A stretch of 64,000 nt of DNA. Source: Nitrososphaerota archaeon. GTDB lineage: Archaea; Thermoproteota; EX4484-205; JAAOZP01. Made by a program: the position numbers and the translations under genes. Shown piece after piece: positions 14,554-30,246 of this stretch. How positions within the stretch are numbered: the stretch's first letter is position 1; every line of letters begins with the position of its first letter. The notes beneath the pieces were generated by a model. It did no database searches. It saw only the letters and a program-made list of their open reading frames with translations, and was not told where the DNA came from. The DNA lies in contig JAAOZP010000014.1 in NCBI GenBank assembly GCA_011605725.1, positions 64,001-128,000 of the forward strand, in the 5' to 3' direction.

Positions 14554-14716
14554 TTAATATAGTAGTGGAGCGGTCTCCGCTGAGGAGGTGTATAGTGCAC
14601 ATGGCCAGCAACGCCCAAAGGGGGCGAGACTACCTGCGTTGCAGAGACAGCGACACCTCTATCGGAGTCTGCTGAAAAACAATATTGTTTTAAACCTGTT
14701 TTAGGAGGGTTTCGTA
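14554..14716 (+). promoter_or_regulatory. leu operon promoter and leader (TATA, uORF, hairpin, main SD)
   Basis: TTAATATA 14554-14561, GGAGGTG 14584-14590, palindrome AAAACAATATTGTTTT 14676-14691; shares motifs with the ilv leader. Confidence 0.7.
14595..14675 (+). CDS. Putative leu operon leader peptide (26 aa) MHMASNAQRGRDYLRCRDSDTSIGVC
   Basis: GTG 4 nt after GGAGGTG; AxRGRD in the same register as the ilv leader peptide. Confidence 0.6.
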   Translation: MHMASNAQRGRDYLRCRDSDTSIGVC

Positions 14717-16252
14717 ATGGTTTGGAGAGGATATATTGCTGAGGCTGAAATACCTGGCAGGGTGATTCTTTTCGACACTACTTTAAGAGATGGTGAACAG
14801 ACTCCTGGAGTCGCGCTTACGCCCGAGGACAAGCTTAAGATAGCGAGACAGCTGGACTTGCTTGGAGTACCCGTATTGGAAGCAGGCTTTCCAGCAGCGT
14901 CGCGCGGCGAGGAGGAGGCTATTAAGCAGATAGCTAGAGAAGGGTTGAACGCGGAGGTCGCTGCCTTATCCAGATGCGTGAAGGAGGATGTTGAGAAGAC
15001 TGCTTCAACCGGTGCACGGAGAATACATCTTTTCATAGCAACCTCAGACATACATTTGAATAAGAAGCTGCAGATAAGCAGGGATGAAGCTGTATGCAGA
15101 GCGGTTGAATCCATAGACCTTGCTAAATCCTACGGTATGAAAATAGAGTTTTCAGCTGAGGATGCGACTCGGACGAGCATCGATTTCCTAGTGGAGTTTT
15201 ACAGGAGGGTTGAAGAGGCGGGAGCAAGCATAGTCGACATTCCTGATACTGTTGGTGTTGCAACACCCTTTGCTATGAGGGAGATTGTTAAGAGGGTTCG
15301 CAAAGCCCTGAGGATCCCGGTTGCAGTGCACTGTCACAACGACATGGGTCTAGCAGTTGCGAACACGCTTGCAGGCATTGAGGGCGGAGCCTCTGAGGCG
15401 CATGTAACAATTAATGGACTTGGGGAGAGAGCAGGCAACGCGAGCCTAGAGGAGGTGGCGGTTTCCCTGAAAGTATTGTATGGTGTTGAAACAGGCTTAA
15501 AGTTTAAAGAGATATACAACACTTGCAGGCTTGTCTCACTGATAACTGGCGTAGCAATACCTGTGAATAAGCCTATAGTTGGAGAAAACGCTTTCTCCCA
15601 TGAGAGCGGTATCCATACTCACGGCATACTGGCGTCTCCAGAGACTTACGAGCCTATAGACCCTGGGTTTGTTGGAGCTAGGAGAAAGCTGGTAGCTGGA
15701 AAGCACGCCGGTGTCCACGGGATTTCAGCGCAGCTTGAAGAAATGGGGTACAGGCTTAGTGAGGAGGAGTTGAAACAGGTTCTTAAAATAGTTAAGGATA
15801 TTGGCGACAAGGGTAAGAAGGTTACTGACGCGGAACTCGCCTCGATAGCTGAAAGCGTTATAGGGTACGGGGTCGGTGAGAAGGATCGCATCGAGCTTGA
15901 AGAGCTTCTGGTGGTCACTGGGTTAAACACGACGCCGACAGCAGCAATAAAGATAAGAAGGGGTGAACAGGCTTGGAGAGGAGCGGAGTTCGGAGTGGGG
16001 CCGATAGATGCTTCGATGAAGGCAGTCAGCAAGCTTCTTGGAGACCTGGTTAAGATTAAGCTTGAAAGCTTCAGGTTGGAGGCAATCACGGGAGGCACGG
16101 ATGCGCTTGCAGAAGTTACGGTCAGGGTTTCAGATGAAGAAGGGAGGAGTGTGACTGCGAAGGGATTCAGCGAGGACATTGTGCTAGCAGGGGTTTACGC
16201 GATATTAAACGGGGCTAACAGGCTTCTGCAGATTAAGAGGGCTGGTAGATGA
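14717..16252 (+). CDS. leuA: 2-isopropylmalate synthase (or citramalate synthase CimA)
   Basis: DTTLRDGEQ, HCHND, GERAGNA, HESGIH, C-terminal regulatory domain. Confidence 0.88.
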   Translation: MVWRGYIAEAEIPGRVILFDTTLRDGEQTPGVALTPEDKLKIARQLDLLGVPVLEAGFPAASRGEEEAIKQIAREGLNAEVAALSRCVKEDVEKTASTGARRIHLFIATSDIHLNKKLQISRDEAVCRAVESIDLAKSYGMKIEFSAEDATRTSIDFLVEFYRRVEEAGASIVDIPDTVGVATPFAMREIVKRVRKALRIPVAVHCHNDMGLAVANTLAGIEGGASEAHVTINGLGERAGNASLEEVAVSLKVLYGVETGLKFKEIYNTCRLVSLITGVAIPVNKPIVGENAFSHESGIHTHGILASPETYEPIDPGFVGARRKLVAGKHAGVHGISAQLEEMGYRLSEEELKQVLKIVKDIGDKGKKVTDAELASIAESVIGYGVGEKDRIELEELLVVTGLNTTPTAAIKIRRGEQAWRGAEFGVGPIDASMKAVSKLLGDLVKIKLESFRLEAITGGTDALAEVTVRVSDEEGRSVTAKGFSEDIVLAGVYAILNGANRLLQIKRAGR

Positions 16253-21134: not shown

Positions 21135-21412
21135 CCCTAAGCCGGATGAACCTGCAGAAACATGCTAATAAGGGTTACATGAAAAACGGTTTGAAACATT
21201 CTGAAGGCTTAAAAGCGATCAGCATTTTACGGGTTTCCCTAGAGACAAGTGGTGGCGAGCTAAGATTCTACAAGGGTTGAGACGCCTCCGGTAGTCCAGA
21301 AGCATGTGAATCACACTCCACGGAAAGCCTTTCCCCCGGTTTTCTACGCGCGCAAAAAGCAGCGGGCAAAACTTAAAAGGCTCAAAAACAAGTATTTCAA
21401 GAGGAACTCGTC

Positions 21413-23561: not shown

Positions 23562-25196
23562 CTAGGTGAAAAACCTGTTTTCCCTCAGCTTAGCTAAAAA
23601 CCGGCTTTCAAGCCTCTTAGCCGGCGGAACCCATTTCCTCCTTCTCTCCTCAAGCTCGTCTCTATCGACAAGCAGGTCCAGCCTTCTTTCCGGCACGTCT
23701 ACAAGTATCTCGTCACCGTCCTCCACGAGCGCTATAGGTCCCCCCAAGTAGGCCTCTGGGGAAACATGGCCTATGGCAATTCCCTTCGTGCCCCCTGAGA
23801 ATCTTCCGTCAGTAACCAGCGCAACCCTTTCAACAAGGTTCCTGCCAACTATTAGCGAGGTCGGCATCAGCATTTCACGCATACCGGGGCCGCCTAGAAG
23901 CCCCTCGTAGCGCACGACAACTACAGTGTCCACAGTGAAATCCTCTTTCTCAAGCGCTTCAACAGCCTCCTCCTCAGAGTTGAAAACCCTAGCCCTGCCT
24001 CTGAACGTTCTAAGCTGAACAGGTGTTCCAGCAAGCTTAATCACAGCGCCCTCCGGCGCCAAGGACCCCCATAGCACCGCTATGCCTCCTTCACCTCTAT
24101 ACGGGTTATCCGGAGAACGTATAAGCATGCCCCTTGGATCTGGAAACTCTTCAACAAGCTCCCGGAGACGCCTACCGGTAACAGTTAAAACATCCAGGTT
24201 AAGATATTTTTTAAGAGTCTTCATGAGCGAGGGGACTCCGCCCGCGTTGTAGAAGTCGATCATGAAGCTCTCGCCGGACGGCCTTATTAGAGCCAGCGTA
24301 GGTATCCTTCTGCTCAGCTCGTCGAAGGTCTTTAGAGGAAGCTCGTACCCAGCCTCCTTGGCTAGAGCGCTCAAGTGGAGAACAGTGTTGGTGGAGCCTC
24401 CGAGAGCATTATCAACAATTATAGCGTTAACAATGCTTTCAGGCTTAACAATATCCTTAAACCTTAAACCCTCCTTCCAGAGTTCCACTATTCGCCTTCC
24501 AGACTCGTATGCAAGAGTCTTCTTACCCTCGTCCTCAGCGTGAGTAGCAGCCATGCCGGGAAGCGATATGCCCATCGCCTCAACCAGGCAAGCCATAGTG
24601 TTAGCAGTGAAAAGGCCGGCGCAGCTTCCGGCGCCGGGGCAAGCAGCCTGTTCAAACTCCCTCAGTTCTTCAAGCGTAATCCTTCCCTCACGGTATTCCC
24701 CGAGCGCTTCGAAGACTGAAACCAAGTCAACCCTCCTGCCTTTGAACAACCCCGGATACATGGGTCCGCCTGTAACGAATATCGACGGAAGATTCAGCCT
24801 GGCTGCTGCCAGCAGGTGGCCGGGAACAATCTTGTCGCATGAAGATATGAAAACCAGGGCGTCGAACACGTGTGCTGAAACCATTATTTCAACCGAGTCG
24901 GCTATGACTTCTCTGCTTGGGAGCGAGAACCTCATTCCATCATGGTTCATCGCAATACCGTCGCAGACAGCGATCGTGTTGAAGATGAAAGGCACCCCGC
25001 CGCTGTCTCTAACACCCTTGGAAACGTTTTCCGCAAGCACGTTGAGGTGAACATGTCCTGGGACAACGTTAGTGAAGGAGTTGACTACACCTATGAAAGG
25101 CTTTTCGAAGTCCTGGTTTCTCAAGCCTATGGCGTGAAGCAGAGACCTGTGCGGAGCCCTGTCCACACCTTTTTTTACAGCGTCGCTCCTCATCAA
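23562..25196 (-). CDS. ilvD: Dihydroxy-acid dehydratase
   Basis: CDGIAM, CDK, TANTM, GGSTN, TDGRFSG, HVSPEA. Confidence 0.96.
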   Translation of the reverse strand: MMRSDAVKKGVDRAPHRSLLHAIGLRNQDFEKPFIGVVNSFTNVVPGHVHLNVLAENVSKGVRDSGGVPFIFNTIAVCDGIAMNHDGMRFSLPSREVIADSVEIMVSAHVFDALVFISSCDKIVPGHLLAAARLNLPSIFVTGGPMYPGLFKGRRVDLVSVFEALGEYREGRITLEELREFEQAACPGAGSCAGLFTANTMACLVEAMGISLPGMAATHAEDEGKKTLAYESGRRIVELWKEGLRFKDIVKPESIVNAIIVDNALGGSTNTVLHLSALAKEAGYELPLKTFDELSRRIPTLALIRPSGESFMIDFYNAGGVPSLMKTLKKYLNLDVLTVTGRRLRELVEEFPDPRGMLIRSPDNPYRGEGGIAVLWGSLAPEGAVIKLAGTPVQLRTFRGRARVFNSEEEAVEALEKEDFTVDTVVVVRYEGLLGGPGMREMLMPTSLIVGRNLVERVALVTDGRFSGGTKGIAIGHVSPEAYLGGPIALVEDGDEILVDVPERRLDLLVDRDELEERRRKWVPPAKRLESRFLAKLRENRFFT

Positions 25197-25203
25197 GTCT
25201 TTT

Positions 25204-26187
25204 TCAACCGTACACCATCGACCTTATTTTCCTTCCAACAGTCTCTATCAAGTGGTTTCTCTCTCTTTCAACGAGAGTCTTCAGAACAACCTGGTTCGAA
25301 CTGTTTTCAAGTATCCACTCTCTTGCGAAAACACCTGTCTGAACATCTTCAAGAAGCTTCCTCATCTTCCTCTTAACATCCTCATCTATAAGATAGGGGC
25401 CGCGCGTAAGACCGCCGTACTTAGCAGTATCGCTGACAGCCTGCCACATGCCGGATAAGCCTTTAGACCAGATCAGGTCGACGATAAGCTTAAGCTCGTT
25501 TAAAACTTCGAAGTAAGCCACCTCAGGCTGGTATCCTGCTTCCACAAGGATTTCGAAGCCGCTTTTAATAAGCGACGAGACTCCGCCGCATAGCACAGCC
25601 TGCTCTCCGAAAAGATCTGTCTCAACCTCCTCCTTGAACGAGGTTTCTATCAAGCCGATCCTGCTTAGCCCCACAGCCTTCCCCAGCTCCCTGACTATTC
25701 TTGAAGCATTACCCGTGTAATCCTGGTGGACAGCTATTAAGCCGGGGACCCCGGTTCCGCGAACATATGCTTCTCTTAAAGCAGGACCAGGCGCCTTGGG
25801 AGCCACGAGGACAACGTCGAGCCAGGGAGAAGGAACTATCTGCCTGTAGTGAATGTTGAAAGCATGCGCGAAAACAAGTGTTGAACCCTTAGAGATGTTC
25901 GGCTCAACATGATCCCTGTAGACAGCCGGTTGAGCAGGATCAGGAATAAGCATTAGAATAATGCTGCTTTTTCTAACTGCCTCACTTATCTCGTAGACTT
26001 CGAAGCCGTCTTCAGAAGCCCTTCTCCAAGACGAGCCTTCTCTTCTCAAGCCTATTATCGTGTTAACACCGCTGTCTCTAATGTTCTTAGCCTGAGCCTC
26101 ACCCTGGGAGCCATAGCCTATCACGGCGACAGTCTTATTCTTAATCAGCTCGATGCTTATTTCATCATCCCTTATTATCCTAGCCAT
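25204..26187 (-). CDS. ilvC: Ketol-acid reductoisomerase
   Basis: GYGSQG, APKAPG, ETDLFGEQAVLCGG. Confidence 0.96.
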   Translation of the reverse strand: MARIIRDDEISIELIKNKTVAVIGYGSQGEAQAKNIRDSGVNTIIGLRREGSSWRRASEDGFEVYEISEAVRKSSIILMLIPDPAQPAVYRDHVEPNISKGSTLVFAHAFNIHYRQIVPSPWLDVVLVAPKAPGPALREAYVRGTGVPGLIAVHQDYTGNASRIVRELGKAVGLSRIGLIETSFKEEVETDLFGEQAVLCGGVSSLIKSGFEILVEAGYQPEVAYFEVLNELKLIVDLIWSKGLSGMWQAVSDTAKYGGLTRGPYLIDEDVKRKMRKLLEDVQTGVFAREWILENSSNQVVLKTLVERERNHLIETVGRKIRSMVYG

Positions 26188-26231
26188 CCTCAGTCACCCC
26201 TACTCCACGGCTACGTTTTCTTTTAAGCTTT

Positions 26232-26720
26232 TTACTTTCTGAAACGGTTCAAAGTGTGAATCATCACACCGCTCCTCGAGAAGCTTTCAACACGATCTTT
26301 AAACTCCTCCTTAAAGTCGTCGACAACCCTAGGGTCGGCGAGGAGCTCGACGAGAAGCCTGGAGCCGCTCAGCAAGGTTGTTCTAGCCCTATACCTGACC
26401 CTGATATAGTCGCTCACACTAGTGTCACAATCCTTCAGCACAGCTACGAAAGCCTCCCTTATCACATCGTACTCGAGAGAACCTATCTTAACCTCGAAGA
26501 CACATGGGTTTTTCTCAAGAACCTTAACTATGTTTTCAAATTTCTCCTGAGGCAGGCTGAAGGTTAGAGATATCTCCGAGGTCTTCCCGTTCACCATGCC
26601 GACAGTTATCGTGTCAATGTTTATTGCTCTCCTCGCGAATATTGAGGCTATTCTCTCCATCACCCCAGGCATGTTGAGAACCCTGAGCACAACGAACCTC
26701 TTATTCTCGTCTGAAGCCAT
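26232..26720 (-). CDS. ilvN: Acetolactate synthase small (regulatory) subunit
   Basis: ACT domain NMPGVMERIASIFARRAINI; between ilvB and ilvC. Confidence 0.85.
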   Translation of the reverse strand: MASDENKRFVVLRVLNMPGVMERIASIFARRAINIDTITVGMVNGKTSEISLTFSLPQEKFENIVKVLEKNPCVFEVKIGSLEYDVIREAFVAVLKDCDTSVSDYIRVRYRARTTLLSGSRLLVELLADPRVVDDFKEEFKDRVESFSRSGVMIHTLNRFRK

Positions 26721-26728
26721 TTTCCACC

Positions 26729-28402
26729 CTACCTCCTTACGATGACTCTGTCAAGCGGGGCAGCCGGGGGAACCATTGGGAAAACATTATCCTCTCTCGC
26801 GACAATCACGTCTAACACAGTTGTCTCATCCTGCTTTAAAGCGGTTTCAAGAGCGTTTTTAAGCTCGCTTATCCTCGTCACTTTAAACCCTTTAGCGCCG
26901 AAACCCTCTGAAACCCTAGCTATGTCAGCTCTGCCCTTCAAATCCACAGCCATATACCTCCTGCCGTAGAAAAGCTCCTGCCACTGTCTAACCATGCCCA
27001 GGAAATAATTGTTAAGAACCAAGACTATGATCGGCAGGTTATAGTCTACTGAAACCGGAAGCTGGTTACAAGTCATGAAGAAGCTACCGTCTCCAGCTAT
27101 GTCGAAAACACGGCTCTCCGGGAAGGCTGCTTTAACCCCGATCGCAGCCGGAAGCCCGAAGCCCATTGTGCCAAGTCCGCCGGAGGATATGAATTGTCTC
27201 GGACGCTTAGCTGTAAAGTGGAGTGAAGCATACATCTGGCACTGGCCTACCTCCGTCGTCACAAAGTCTTCAGCCTTAACATAGTCGTTCAGAACCCTTA
27301 CGGCAGTACTTGGATCAACCGGAACAGCATCGTAATCGTAAAGGAACTCAGATTCCTTCTTGAGCTGTTTAACTCTTTCACCCCACGTAGCAGCCTTGCC
27401 CTTCTTGAAAAGCCTGAGAATCGTTTCGCGAATCCTGATTAAAACCTGCTTAGCGTCACCGGCGACGCCAAGGTCGGGCTTAAGCAGCTTCCCGATTTCA
27501 GACCTATCTATGTCAACATGTATCTTCCTCGCTCCCGGGGCGAAGCCGCTTAACTTACCAGTAGTCCTGTCGCTAAACCTCATGCCTACTGCAAGAATCA
27601 GGTCGCTCTCCTGAACAGCCTTGATCGCGCCTAGCTTCCCATGCATTCCAACCATGCCTAGGGACAACGGATGGTCTTCAGGAATGCTTCCCTTGCCCAT
27701 TAGAGTCGTCGCTACGGGAGCGTTTAGAAGCTCAGCAAGGGCGATAAGCTCGCTGGACGCGCCTGATATTATTACTCCGCCTCCAGCTATGATCACAGGC
27801 CTCTCAGCCTCAACCAGCATCTTTGAGACTGTTAGAATCTCCTCGTCGGAGGGAGAGGGAGGAGTATAAGAGTAGATGTAGAAATCGTCATCAGGCTCGC
27901 CCTCCATCAGCTGAACATCCCTAGGGACGTCGATGTGAACAGGCCCAGGTCTTCCGGATAAGGCTATTTTAAAAGCGTTCTCAAGCGCAGAGTTAAGCTC
28001 GTTTAAGTCTCTAGGTAGAAAGTTCATCTTCGTCAACCCTATCATCATCGAGAAAACATTAGCCTCCTGAAAACCGTCGTAACCTATGAGAGGCGTCGCA
28101 ACCTGGCCGGCTATGCTTAAAACCGGCGAGGAATCCAAGTAGGCGTTGGCAATTCCTGTTGCAAGATTAGTGGCGCCAGGGCCGGATGTGGCGACGACAA
28201 CGCCAATCCTGCCGGTTGCCCTAGCATACCCGTCAGCCATGTGGGCAGCACCCTGCTCATGCCTCGCGAGAATGAACTCTATGTCGCCAGCCTTATAAAG
28301 CTCGTCTAGAAACGGGAGCACAGCCCCACCGGGTACTCCGAAGATGGTTTTAACCCCGTTCTCCCTCAGCTTCTCAACTAGTAGTCTAGACCCTGAAACC
28401 AT
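26729..28402 (-). CDS. ilvB: Acetolactate synthase large subunit
   Basis: RHEQGA, TSGPGATN, GLGTMGFG, GDGSF; start at ATG 28402 after SD GAGGTG. Confidence 0.95.
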   Translation of the reverse strand: MVSGSRLLVEKLRENGVKTIFGVPGGAVLPFLDELYKAGDIEFILARHEQGAAHMADGYARATGRIGVVVATSGPGATNLATGIANAYLDSSPVLSIAGQVATPLIGYDGFQEANVFSMMIGLTKMNFLPRDLNELNSALENAFKIALSGRPGPVHIDVPRDVQLMEGEPDDDFYIYSYTPPSPSDEEILTVSKMLVEAERPVIIAGGGVIISGASSELIALAELLNAPVATTLMGKGSIPEDHPLSLGMVGMHGKLGAIKAVQESDLILAVGMRFSDRTTGKLSGFAPGARKIHVDIDRSEIGKLLKPDLGVAGDAKQVLIRIRETILRLFKKGKAATWGERVKQLKKESEFLYDYDAVPVDPSTAVRVLNDYVKAEDFVTTEVGQCQMYASLHFTAKRPRQFISSGGLGTMGFGLPAAIGVKAAFPESRVFDIAGDGSFFMTCNQLPVSVDYNLPIIVLVLNNYFLGMVRQWQELFYGRRYMAVDLKGRADIARVSEGFGAKGFKVTRISELKNALETALKQDETTVLDVIVAREDNVFPMVPPAAPLDRVIVRR

Positions 28403-28577
28403 TTGAAACACCTCTTGCAAACGGCTTTTTGAAAACCACTGTTTTCTCTAGCGGAGGCTGGGTTTGCAGCGGGACTCCTGCAGTTGGTGGACGGTGTCCC
28501 GCCCCCTTGGAGCGTGAATATTATGGTACACTCAGCGCACCTCCTAAGCAGTGTGCCCATTGAGAGGCCTATATTAA
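28403..28577 (-). promoter_or_regulatory. ilv operon promoter and leader (TATA, uORF, hairpin, main SD)
   Basis: TTAATATA at 28577-28570, GGAGGTG at 28544-28538, hairpin GAAAAC-AGTG-GTTTTC at 28446-28431. Confidence 0.7.
28448..28531 (-). CDS. Putative ilv operon leader peptide (27 aa) MYHNIHAPRGRDTVHQLQESRCKPSLR
   Basis: GTG 6 nt after GGAGGTG; AxRGRD at codons 7-12 as in the leu leader. Confidence 0.6.
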   Translation of the reverse strand: MYHNIHAPRGRDTVHQLQESRCKPSLR

Positions 28578-28596
28578 TCTTTCCCCCCTAAGCTGG

Positions 28597-29304: not shown

Positions 29305-30246
29305 TCACTCCTCCATAAACCTGTGGGCGGACTCAAGCAGGTGCTGCCTGCTGCTTACAATCTTGTTGATGGAAGCATTGTTCTTAACAAGGAACTCCAG
29401 AGTCCTCTGGATTTTCTCAGGAGTATTGTCAAACTCTATTATTGCCTCCTTCTCACCGGTTGCGTACCAGCTTACACCGATTTTCTCAAGCATTTCAATA
29501 TTGCTTTCAACGCTGAAGCCTGAAACATGTATGGAAAGCATGCCGGGGCCGCTGACTCCGGTGATGAAGCTCTCCGTATGGTCTAACACGGCCTGCTGCC
29601 CATTGTGGAATATGGTTATCCTGTCGCAAACATCGTCCAGGAGCATGGGTATTGTTGAAAACACGACTATAGACTTACCCAAGTCCGTCGAAGTCTTTAT
29701 GAAGTTACGCATGAAGGAGGCTACGTCGTAAGTTGCCCCCCTGAAAGGATCGTAGAGAAGCACCACTGCCGGATCATGGATGAATGTTGAGGCGAAGCAT
29801 AGCTTCCTCCTGATGGAGAGGGAAAGCTTGGACCATTTAACCCTTGAAACGTTAGCCGCTTCGAAAAGGGAAAGCAGCTCCTCAACTCTTTTAACAGCCT
29901 TATCCCTAGGCACTTTGTGCAAAGAGGCTGCTAGAAGAAAGTTTTCCATGACCGTCAAGTCTTCAACCAGGTTCATGGTGCACGAGTAAAAACCAACCCT
30001 CCTGCTGAAATCCCTCCTGCTGAACCTCGGGTTGTTAAAGTAGATTATGCTGCCTGAGGAAGGCCTGTCTAGGAGAAGCAGGAGTTTGAAAAGGCATTCA
30101 ACCGGCTCAGTCCTGTTTGAAACAATCCCGAGTATTTCAGCATTATCCAGGACGAAGCTTACTTTCGAAAGCAACATATGCCCGTTTTTCTTGAAGGAGA
30201 CGTCTGAAACCTTCAACGGGGCACCAACGGGCTCTGCGAGACTCAA
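29305..30246 (-). CDS. ABC ATP-binding-like protein with degenerate catalytic motifs
   Basis: ABC-2 ATPase scaffold (PSSGSI, LTVMENF, HDP, CDRI) but no Walker A lysine, Walker B DE or H-switch. Confidence 0.7.
   Translation of the reverse strand: MSLAEPVGAPLKVSDVSFKKNGHMLLSKVSFVLDNAEILGIVSNRTEPVECLFKLLLLLDRPSSGSIIYFNNPRFSRRDFSRRVGFYSCTMNLVEDLTVMENFLLAASLHKVPRDKAVKRVEELLSLFEAANVSRVKWSKLSLSIRRKLCFASTFIHDPAVVLLYDPFRGATYDVASFMRNFIKTSTDLGKSIVVFSTIPMLLDDVCDRITIFHNGQQAVLDHTESFITGVSGPGMLSIHVSGFSVESNIEMLEKIGVSWYATGEKEAIIEFDNTPEKIQRTLEFLVKNNASINKIVSSRQHLLESAHRFMEE

Follow-up and report, generated by a model that had tools for sequence, protein, structure and literature searches.

What might a short reading frame be doing when it occurs twice in one genome, each time shortly upstream of an operon for branched-chain amino acid biosynthesis? 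The window that raises this question (the whole 64,000-nucleotide stretch of DNA analysed here) comes from a hot-spring archaeon, a member of Ca. Brockarchaeota with a genome of 2.2 Mb and archaeal genes, and it holds both copies: one upstream ORF (uORF) precedes ilvB-ilvH-ilvC-ilvD and the other leuA-leuC-leuD (Table 1). An earlier note on this DNA had described the ilv copy by its TATA box, Shine–Dalgarno (SD) sequence, GTG start, 27 codons, stop codon and the 45 nt that separate it from the ilvB ATG, and had matched to it a leu copy of 26 codons that ends 41 nt from leuA; all of these details were confirmed. To judge from the distance to the TATA box, the ilv transcript probably starts some 22–26 nt downstream of it, a few bases before the uORF SD. 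The initiating GTG is followed by TAC or TAT in all ilv leaders and in most of the GTG-started leu leaders (window positions 28526–28531, minus strand, and 14595–14600, plus strand), and either Tyr2 or the nucleotide context for GTG initiation may matter.

Table 1. Features of the ilv leader, and of its counterpart before leuA, in window coordinates
Feature	Position	Strand	Remarks
Operon ilvB (28402-26729), ilvH/N, ilvC, ilvD	23562-28402	-	Putatively regulated by the leader; Pfam TPP_enzyme, ACT_AHAS_ss, KARI
Archaeal promoter: purine-rich BRE-like stretch and TATA box TTAATATA	28570-28584 (TATA 28577-28570)	-	Same box before leuA (14554-14561) and in all orthologues
Shared SD-region sequence GCTTAGGAGGTG	28549-28538	-	
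uORF Shine–Dalgarno sequence AGGAGGTG	28538-28545	-	Complementary to the 16S 3' end found in this genome
ilv leader uORF (frame 0)	28448-28531	-	27 codons; GTG start 28531, TAG stop 28450-28448
Putative internal SD-like RNA motif A AGG GGG CGR	28499-28508	-	Codons 9-11; third positions frozen
Codon 14, GTC (Val), putative sensor	28490-28492	-	32/32 ilv leaders, including the second family
Codon 17, CTG (Leu), probable second sensor	28481-28483	-	Ile17-Leu18 in the out-group family
Stop-free +1 frame from codon 14 across the spacer	28378-28491	-	Ends 22 nt inside ilvB; no start codon of its own
Anti-SD-like pyrimidine box GCCTCC	28453-28458	-	CACCTCC in some relatives; can pair with either SD
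ilvB SD	28409-28415	-	
Sister leader before leuA-leuC-leuD	14554-14742	+	TATA 14554, SD 14583-14590, GTG 14595 / ATG 14601
leu leader, continued		+	Motif 14618-14627, Leu14 CTG 14634-14636, stop 14673-14675
leu leader, downstream part		+	leuA ATG 14717, +1 frame ends 14740-14742

That the two copies represent the same element beyond chance, as the earlier note proposed, was borne out at several levels. A 12-mer shared by the two leaders occurs twice in the window against an expectation of 0.03, and the cassette matches at exactly two places in the 2.2-Mb genome, even when two substitutions are allowed; a genome-wide scan brought up no third copy, and neither the other leuA paralogues nor three class I synthetase genes have one. 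When the cassette pattern was run over 185,579 species genomes, the 31 archaeal matches all came from the same lineage and all lay directly before leuA or ilvB (five further matches, in bacteria, were unrelated), so the motif is not common in unrelated intergenic regions, one of the outcomes that the note had named as fatal to its proposal. Absence from close relatives was another, and here all 16 congeners carry the cassette, as does one genome from a second family, in which IlvB is 59% identical; across the rest of 400 phylum genomes, outside these two families, matches were at control level. The second-family genome has no such leader directly before leuA. From genomes, metagenomes and assembled runs, 60 distinct leaders were gathered (32 ilv and 28 leu), which span one genus and the one out-group genome, and their alignment with orthologues, a check that the note had proposed, showed conservation of the element across the genus. 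These comparisons support a single, lineage-wide regulatory element shared by two branched-chain operons; as judged from its sequence, the leader element is real, conserved and pathway-specific. The two operons had been called functionally linked but unlinked on the DNA: they are indeed separately transcribed, but they lie only 14 kb apart on the same contig.

What would such an element sense? Codon 14 matches the pathway in all 60 leaders, being GTC (Val) in 32/32 ilv leaders, as had been read in the ilv copy here, and CTG (Leu) in 28/28 leu leaders; variation of this codon regardless of pathway, the third outcome that would have told against the proposal, did not occur. The earlier suggestion that Ile5 and Leu17 might add multivalent sensing held in part: codon 17 is CTG in 31/31 ilv leaders of the genus, and Leu17 is likely to be a second sensor for ilv, but Ile5 is found in only eight of 15 congeners and was rejected as a sensor. 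Among the leader-peptide attenuators of branched-chain operons in Escherichia coli, ivbL (of ivbL-ilvBN) and leuL follow the same logic, ilvB being governed by Val together with Leu and leu only by Leu. Among the leu uORFs, GTG is missing from codon 1 only in lineages that have acquired an ATG, in frame, at codon 3; L149, an ilv leader, has exchanged its GTG for ATG, and no stop or frame break precedes codon 17 in any of the 60 leaders. Such in-frame replacement of start codons makes translation of the uORF probable, and we consider it very probable that the uORF acts as a translated sensor of Val and Leu codons.

The stretch just before the sensor codon had been taken by the earlier note for a peptide motif, AxRGRD. 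Its conservation lies at the nucleotide level. Codon 9 is AGG and never AGA, codon 10 is GGG and never GGA, GGC or GGT, and no synonymous change of either was seen in the 60 leaders; the third base of codon 8 is always A, while the residue encoded may be P, Q, K, L, R, I, S or T; and the motif uses CGA and CGG, the rarest Arg codons. By comparison, the main genes have saturated third positions and keep one codon at just 13 of 337 invariant four- or sixfold degenerate residues. The only core changes seen were to AGGAGG or to CGA/CGG; they either create AGGAGG or exchange an A-U for a G-U pair against the 3' end of this genome's 16S rRNA, and pairing with it is kept or improved. The motif is kept in the out-group family, together with Val14, and its hexamer AGG GGG is identical to that of E. 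coli prfB. From this pattern of substitution we read the motif as an internal SD-like RNA element, and AxRGRD, because its conservation is at the nucleotide level, is unsupported as a functional peptide motif. If the peptide itself stalled the ribosome in an amino-acid-dependent way, as a nascent arrest peptide of the TnaC or SecM kind, the constancy of R9, R11 and the position of codon 14 would be expected; but such a peptide should conserve residues and leave synonymous sites free, and the leaders have frozen AGG and GGG codons, a fixed third base beside eight alternative residues, the rarest Arg codons, and natural variants at the AxRGRD site that include APRRRD, GSRRRD, TPRGRD, APRGRE and CTRGRY, which makes arrest extremely improbable. 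Three other ideas about the motif were set aside: a small hairpin pairing it with codon 7 is not required, being broken in L116 and in the out-group; its match to the complements of tRNA T-arms was judged coincidental; and the internal SD was rejected as a site of fresh initiation in the +1 frame, since none of the triplets suitably spaced from it (ACC, CCG, TGC, TCC) is near-cognate and the leaders have no conserved start codon in that frame.

Where would a ribosome go from codon 14? Frame 0 is closed in all 60 leaders, stopping 35–57 nt short of the main ATG. The +1 frame, in contrast, is free of stops from codon 14 to at least position −10 of the main ATG in 60/60 leaders, and terminates between −6 and +34 nt of that ATG in every one of them. 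Stops in the +1 frame are common upstream of the motif (at nt 1, 7, 10, 13 and 22) and absent after it; as the last of them is at nt 22, any frame change would have to be placed at or after codon 9. The −1 frame is closed in 28/28 leu leaders; unlike this, the ilv −1 frame also runs without stops to the start region in 32/32 (for example, window positions 28402–28492, minus strand), which 1-nt indels that swap frames between lineages explain in part but not entirely. The ilv spacer tolerates such indels. In leu, the spacer has changed in length by multiples of three (83, 80, 74 and 68), also behind the frame-0 stop, and in the two exceptions a base inserted behind the SD has created a TAATG overlap of the +1 stop with the start codon; the leu +1 stop otherwise lies mostly 23 nt past the ATG. 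In the out-group family, +1 stops are again confined to the part ahead of the motif, and the frame then closes with an ATGA overlap at the first ilvB ATG, the commonest geometry of translational coupling (PMC10666635). The gene caller takes the second ATG in this genome (G017); it is the first that is correctly spaced from the SD. A frameshift that would fuse the uORF to IlvB or LeuA was rejected, as the frame relations vary and the shifted frames stop.

The +1 frame was singled out after the leaders had been inspected, but the rule for passing was fixed before new loci were fetched, and all 11 new leaders (six leu and five ilv, differing from any of the earlier ones at as many as 30 of 87 nt) proved to have it open. 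In tree simulations, in which the observed 201 and 214 substitutions were dealt out afresh over the trees under two nulls, all leaves stayed open with a probability of no more than 0.004 for leu and 0.001 for ilv, while frame 0 and the leu −1 frame gained stops at the neutral rate; control triplets behaved as the null, and in the argH 5' region, taken as a control, no frame stays open. Counts of stop gains alone are marginal under the strict null (P = 0.085 for leu and 0.027 for ilv). One ‘+1 stop gain’ in the tree analysis sits in a reconstructed inner node, as no real leader has such a stop.

The uORF, the identity of its codons, the nucleotide-level motif and the open +1 frame can be read directly from the sequences. 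The interpretation that in our view accounts best for them, to which we give somewhat better than even probability, is that starvation triggers a change of frame by which translation is coupled into the operon; translation, stalling and the change of frame are what we infer. The uORF would measure charged tRNA-Val or tRNA-Leu through a single cognate codon, with a change of reading frame as its output. When the amino acid is plentiful, codon 14 (and codon 17) would be read quickly and the ribosome would terminate in frame 0, 32–54 nt short of the gene, a distance too great for reinitiation (gaps of about 20 nt abolish coupling: PMC10666635); the U-rich spacer would be left untranslated and exposed to termination (U-tracts are used in archaeal termination: PMC8116511, PMC13675443), and for these two reasons the operon would stay low. 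When the tRNA is uncharged, the ribosome would wait at the hungry codon, anchored by 16S rRNA pairing to the internal SD-like motif, and would move into the +1 frame, either through a short hop or by decoding out of frame as in Ty3. It would then translate the spacer and terminate −6 to +34 nt from the main ATG, and the operon might be turned on by reinitiation, by melting of the start region or by coupling to RNA polymerase that blocks termination by aCPSF1/FttA (the genome encodes aCPSF1). The polarity of such a switch is right for a biosynthetic operon. No slippery site was found in the leaders: a +1 slip of the P-site tRNA would keep one of three pairs in most leaders, and a +4 landing two or three of three. 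Between the SD-like motif and the P-site codon there are 6 nt, as against the 3 nt known for +1 shifts (PMC5009743). We regard as evenly balanced the chances that the leader is, more specifically, a hungry-codon recoding switch, in which shortage of the cognate aminoacyl-tRNA makes the ribosome change frame or hop over the codon, with no classical slippery site, into a frame that leads to the first biosynthetic gene. Against a frame change count the lack of a slippery site, the 6-nt spacing, the open ilv −1 frame, the 1-nt indels of the ilv spacer, the marginal stop-gain counts, the choice of the frame after inspection, the position of the leu +1 stop, long for reinitiation, and the confinement of the leaders to one genus and one out-group genome.

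Could stalling alone suffice? In a translational attenuator of the ermC or cat type, the anti-SD-like box would pair with the upstream SD while the ribosome is stalled (on) and with the main SD after read-through (off), and the open +1 frame would be a by-product. The box is conserved, with pairing to the one or the other SD possible in 82% and 90% of cells; in one ilv subclade the SD is strongly occluded (by about 10 kcal/mol), and the leader of genome G011 folds as this model predicts. The pairing of the box has, however, left no compensatory changes, occlusion of the leu SD equals the genome background (42nd–54th percentile), and the out-group leader lacks the upstream SD AGGAGGTG. When leaders were folded with ribosome footprints masked at the start, codon 14, codon 17 or the stop, the mean opening energy moved by no more than about 1 kcal/mol, stalling at codon 14 brought no gain, and no switch on simple stalling was computed. 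As the open frame and the triplet indels are also left unexplained, we think such an attenuator unlikely; the role of the pyrimidine box is uncertain, and were read-through to open a long hairpin, the response would be of the wrong sign for biosynthesis genes.

Stalling might instead act on transcription, if a ribosome at the frame-0 stop exposed the U-tract for intrinsic or aCPSF1-dependent termination and a stalled one let an A-rich arm mask it. U-tracts with a short stop-proximal hairpin in many leaders, the presence of aCPSF1 and the part that U-tracts play in archaeal termination would fit, but no terminator-like site was found in the leaders, one ilv subclade has a weak U-tract and the hairpin varies; moreover, a stalled ribosome uncouples earlier and should favour termination, and the +1 frame is again unexplained, all of which makes this quite improbable. 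The bacterial-type attenuator implied by the earlier note likewise finds no support, because there is neither a terminator-like site nor a computed switch on simple stalling. There is also the idea that the ORF is incidental to an RNA element, a T-box-like tRNA sensor or a protein-binding site, with the fixed GTC or CTG as its specifier. The frozen wobble positions, so different from the main genes, would suit such an element, whereas the in-frame survival of the start through its turnover and the integrity of the frame up to codon 17 would not; Rfam gave no match at gathering level or at E ≤ 1 except for a chance snoRNA, hence no Stem I with specifier loop, and the alignments contain no conserved T-box antiterminator bulge. 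We regard it as very improbable.

Set beside known systems, the leader with its proposed frame change shares the short leader ORF and cognate codons of bacterial branched-chain attenuators (Corynebacterium ilvBNC: PMC11857589), with an SD and start of its own. It has one or two sensor codons in place of their runs, no alternative terminator/antiterminator hairpins with a U-tract (as sought in the leaders with Rfam, folding and a terminator search), and, unlike them, an internal SD, an open +1 frame and an archaeal promoter. The actinobacterial LEU element before leuA (PMC1262725) is also a leader ORF with Leu codons and no terminator, for which SD pairing is proposed, but here no Leu run pairs with the SD, no pseudoknot was seen, a Val version precedes ilvB and the sequence is unrelated. 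In the +1 frameshift of prfB (RF2), as here, an SD-like hexamer precedes a slow A-site codon, and the outcome is feedback on a translation-related pool (PMC5009743); the differences are its 3-nt spacer (6 nt here) and slippery CUU-U, for which there is no equivalent in the leaders, the slow codon, which would here be a sense codon, and the +1 frame, which always stops at −6 to +34 and is not fused to the main protein. Ketolide-induced frameshifting in the ermCL leader ORF (PMC5009743) also changes the frame of a uORF so that the spacer is translated and the gene behind it switched on, and in 60/60 of our leaders one alternative frame stays open all the way from the uORF, across the spacer, to the start of the gene; in ermCL the trigger is a drug, whereas our leaders would rely on a hungry cognate codon and on an SD-like stimulator of their own, and SD occlusion is not general in them. 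Entry into the +1 frame at a slow codon without standard P-site re-pairing has parallels in the yeast Ty3 shift and in hungry-codon bypassing (PMC5009743), but these are not amino acid sensors of biosynthetic operons. By these analogies the leader resembles a leader-peptide attenuator on its input side and ermCL frameshift activation on its output side; it fails to match classical attenuators, T-boxes, arrest peptides or prfB in their defining features.

To our knowledge, archaea lack bacterial hairpin terminators. We found no description of a codon-sensing leader for archaeal amino acid operons in the open-access literature, most subscription papers being outside the scope of the search. A 2016 review of recoding treats hungry-codon frameshifting as a side effect of starvation, and the only frameshift control by a uORF that it gives is drug-induced (PMC5009743). 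There is perhaps an even chance that the leader is a recoding-based attenuator of a kind not yet described, within the broader class of codon-sensing leader control. If so, it would be a mechanism of amino acid attenuation without hairpin switching, would show how the expression of archaeal operons can be tied to the charging of tRNA, and would supply a search pattern for other lineages.

Finally, several neighbouring genes may be mentioned. A small Arg-rich ORF before argH (window positions 21219–21320, minus strand) was considered as a third member of the system and rejected: the stretch is specific to this genome, being absent from all 15 congeners, and its alternative frames are closed. 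As this arg copy is not conserved, the regulon comprises leu plus ilv. A box resembling TAACCCTTATTAGC, some 30–45 nt upstream of the argH start and downstream of a TTTTAA-type box, is kept in 16/16 genomes, and is possibly the TATA box or an operator of argH. Directly upstream of the ilv promoter region lies a gene for an ABC-type ATPase with a degenerate Walker A motif (window positions 29305–30246, minus strand). A probable citramalate synthase, 31% identical to LeuA, is encoded elsewhere (G000:C19:97399, plus strand), directly behind a ribosomal-protein-like gene; it has no leader, so entry into the Ile branch seems to lie outside leader control. Two relatives within the phylum have an unrelated leader upstream of ilvB, with an SD, an ATG and a C-rich spacer, which is conserved between both genomes.
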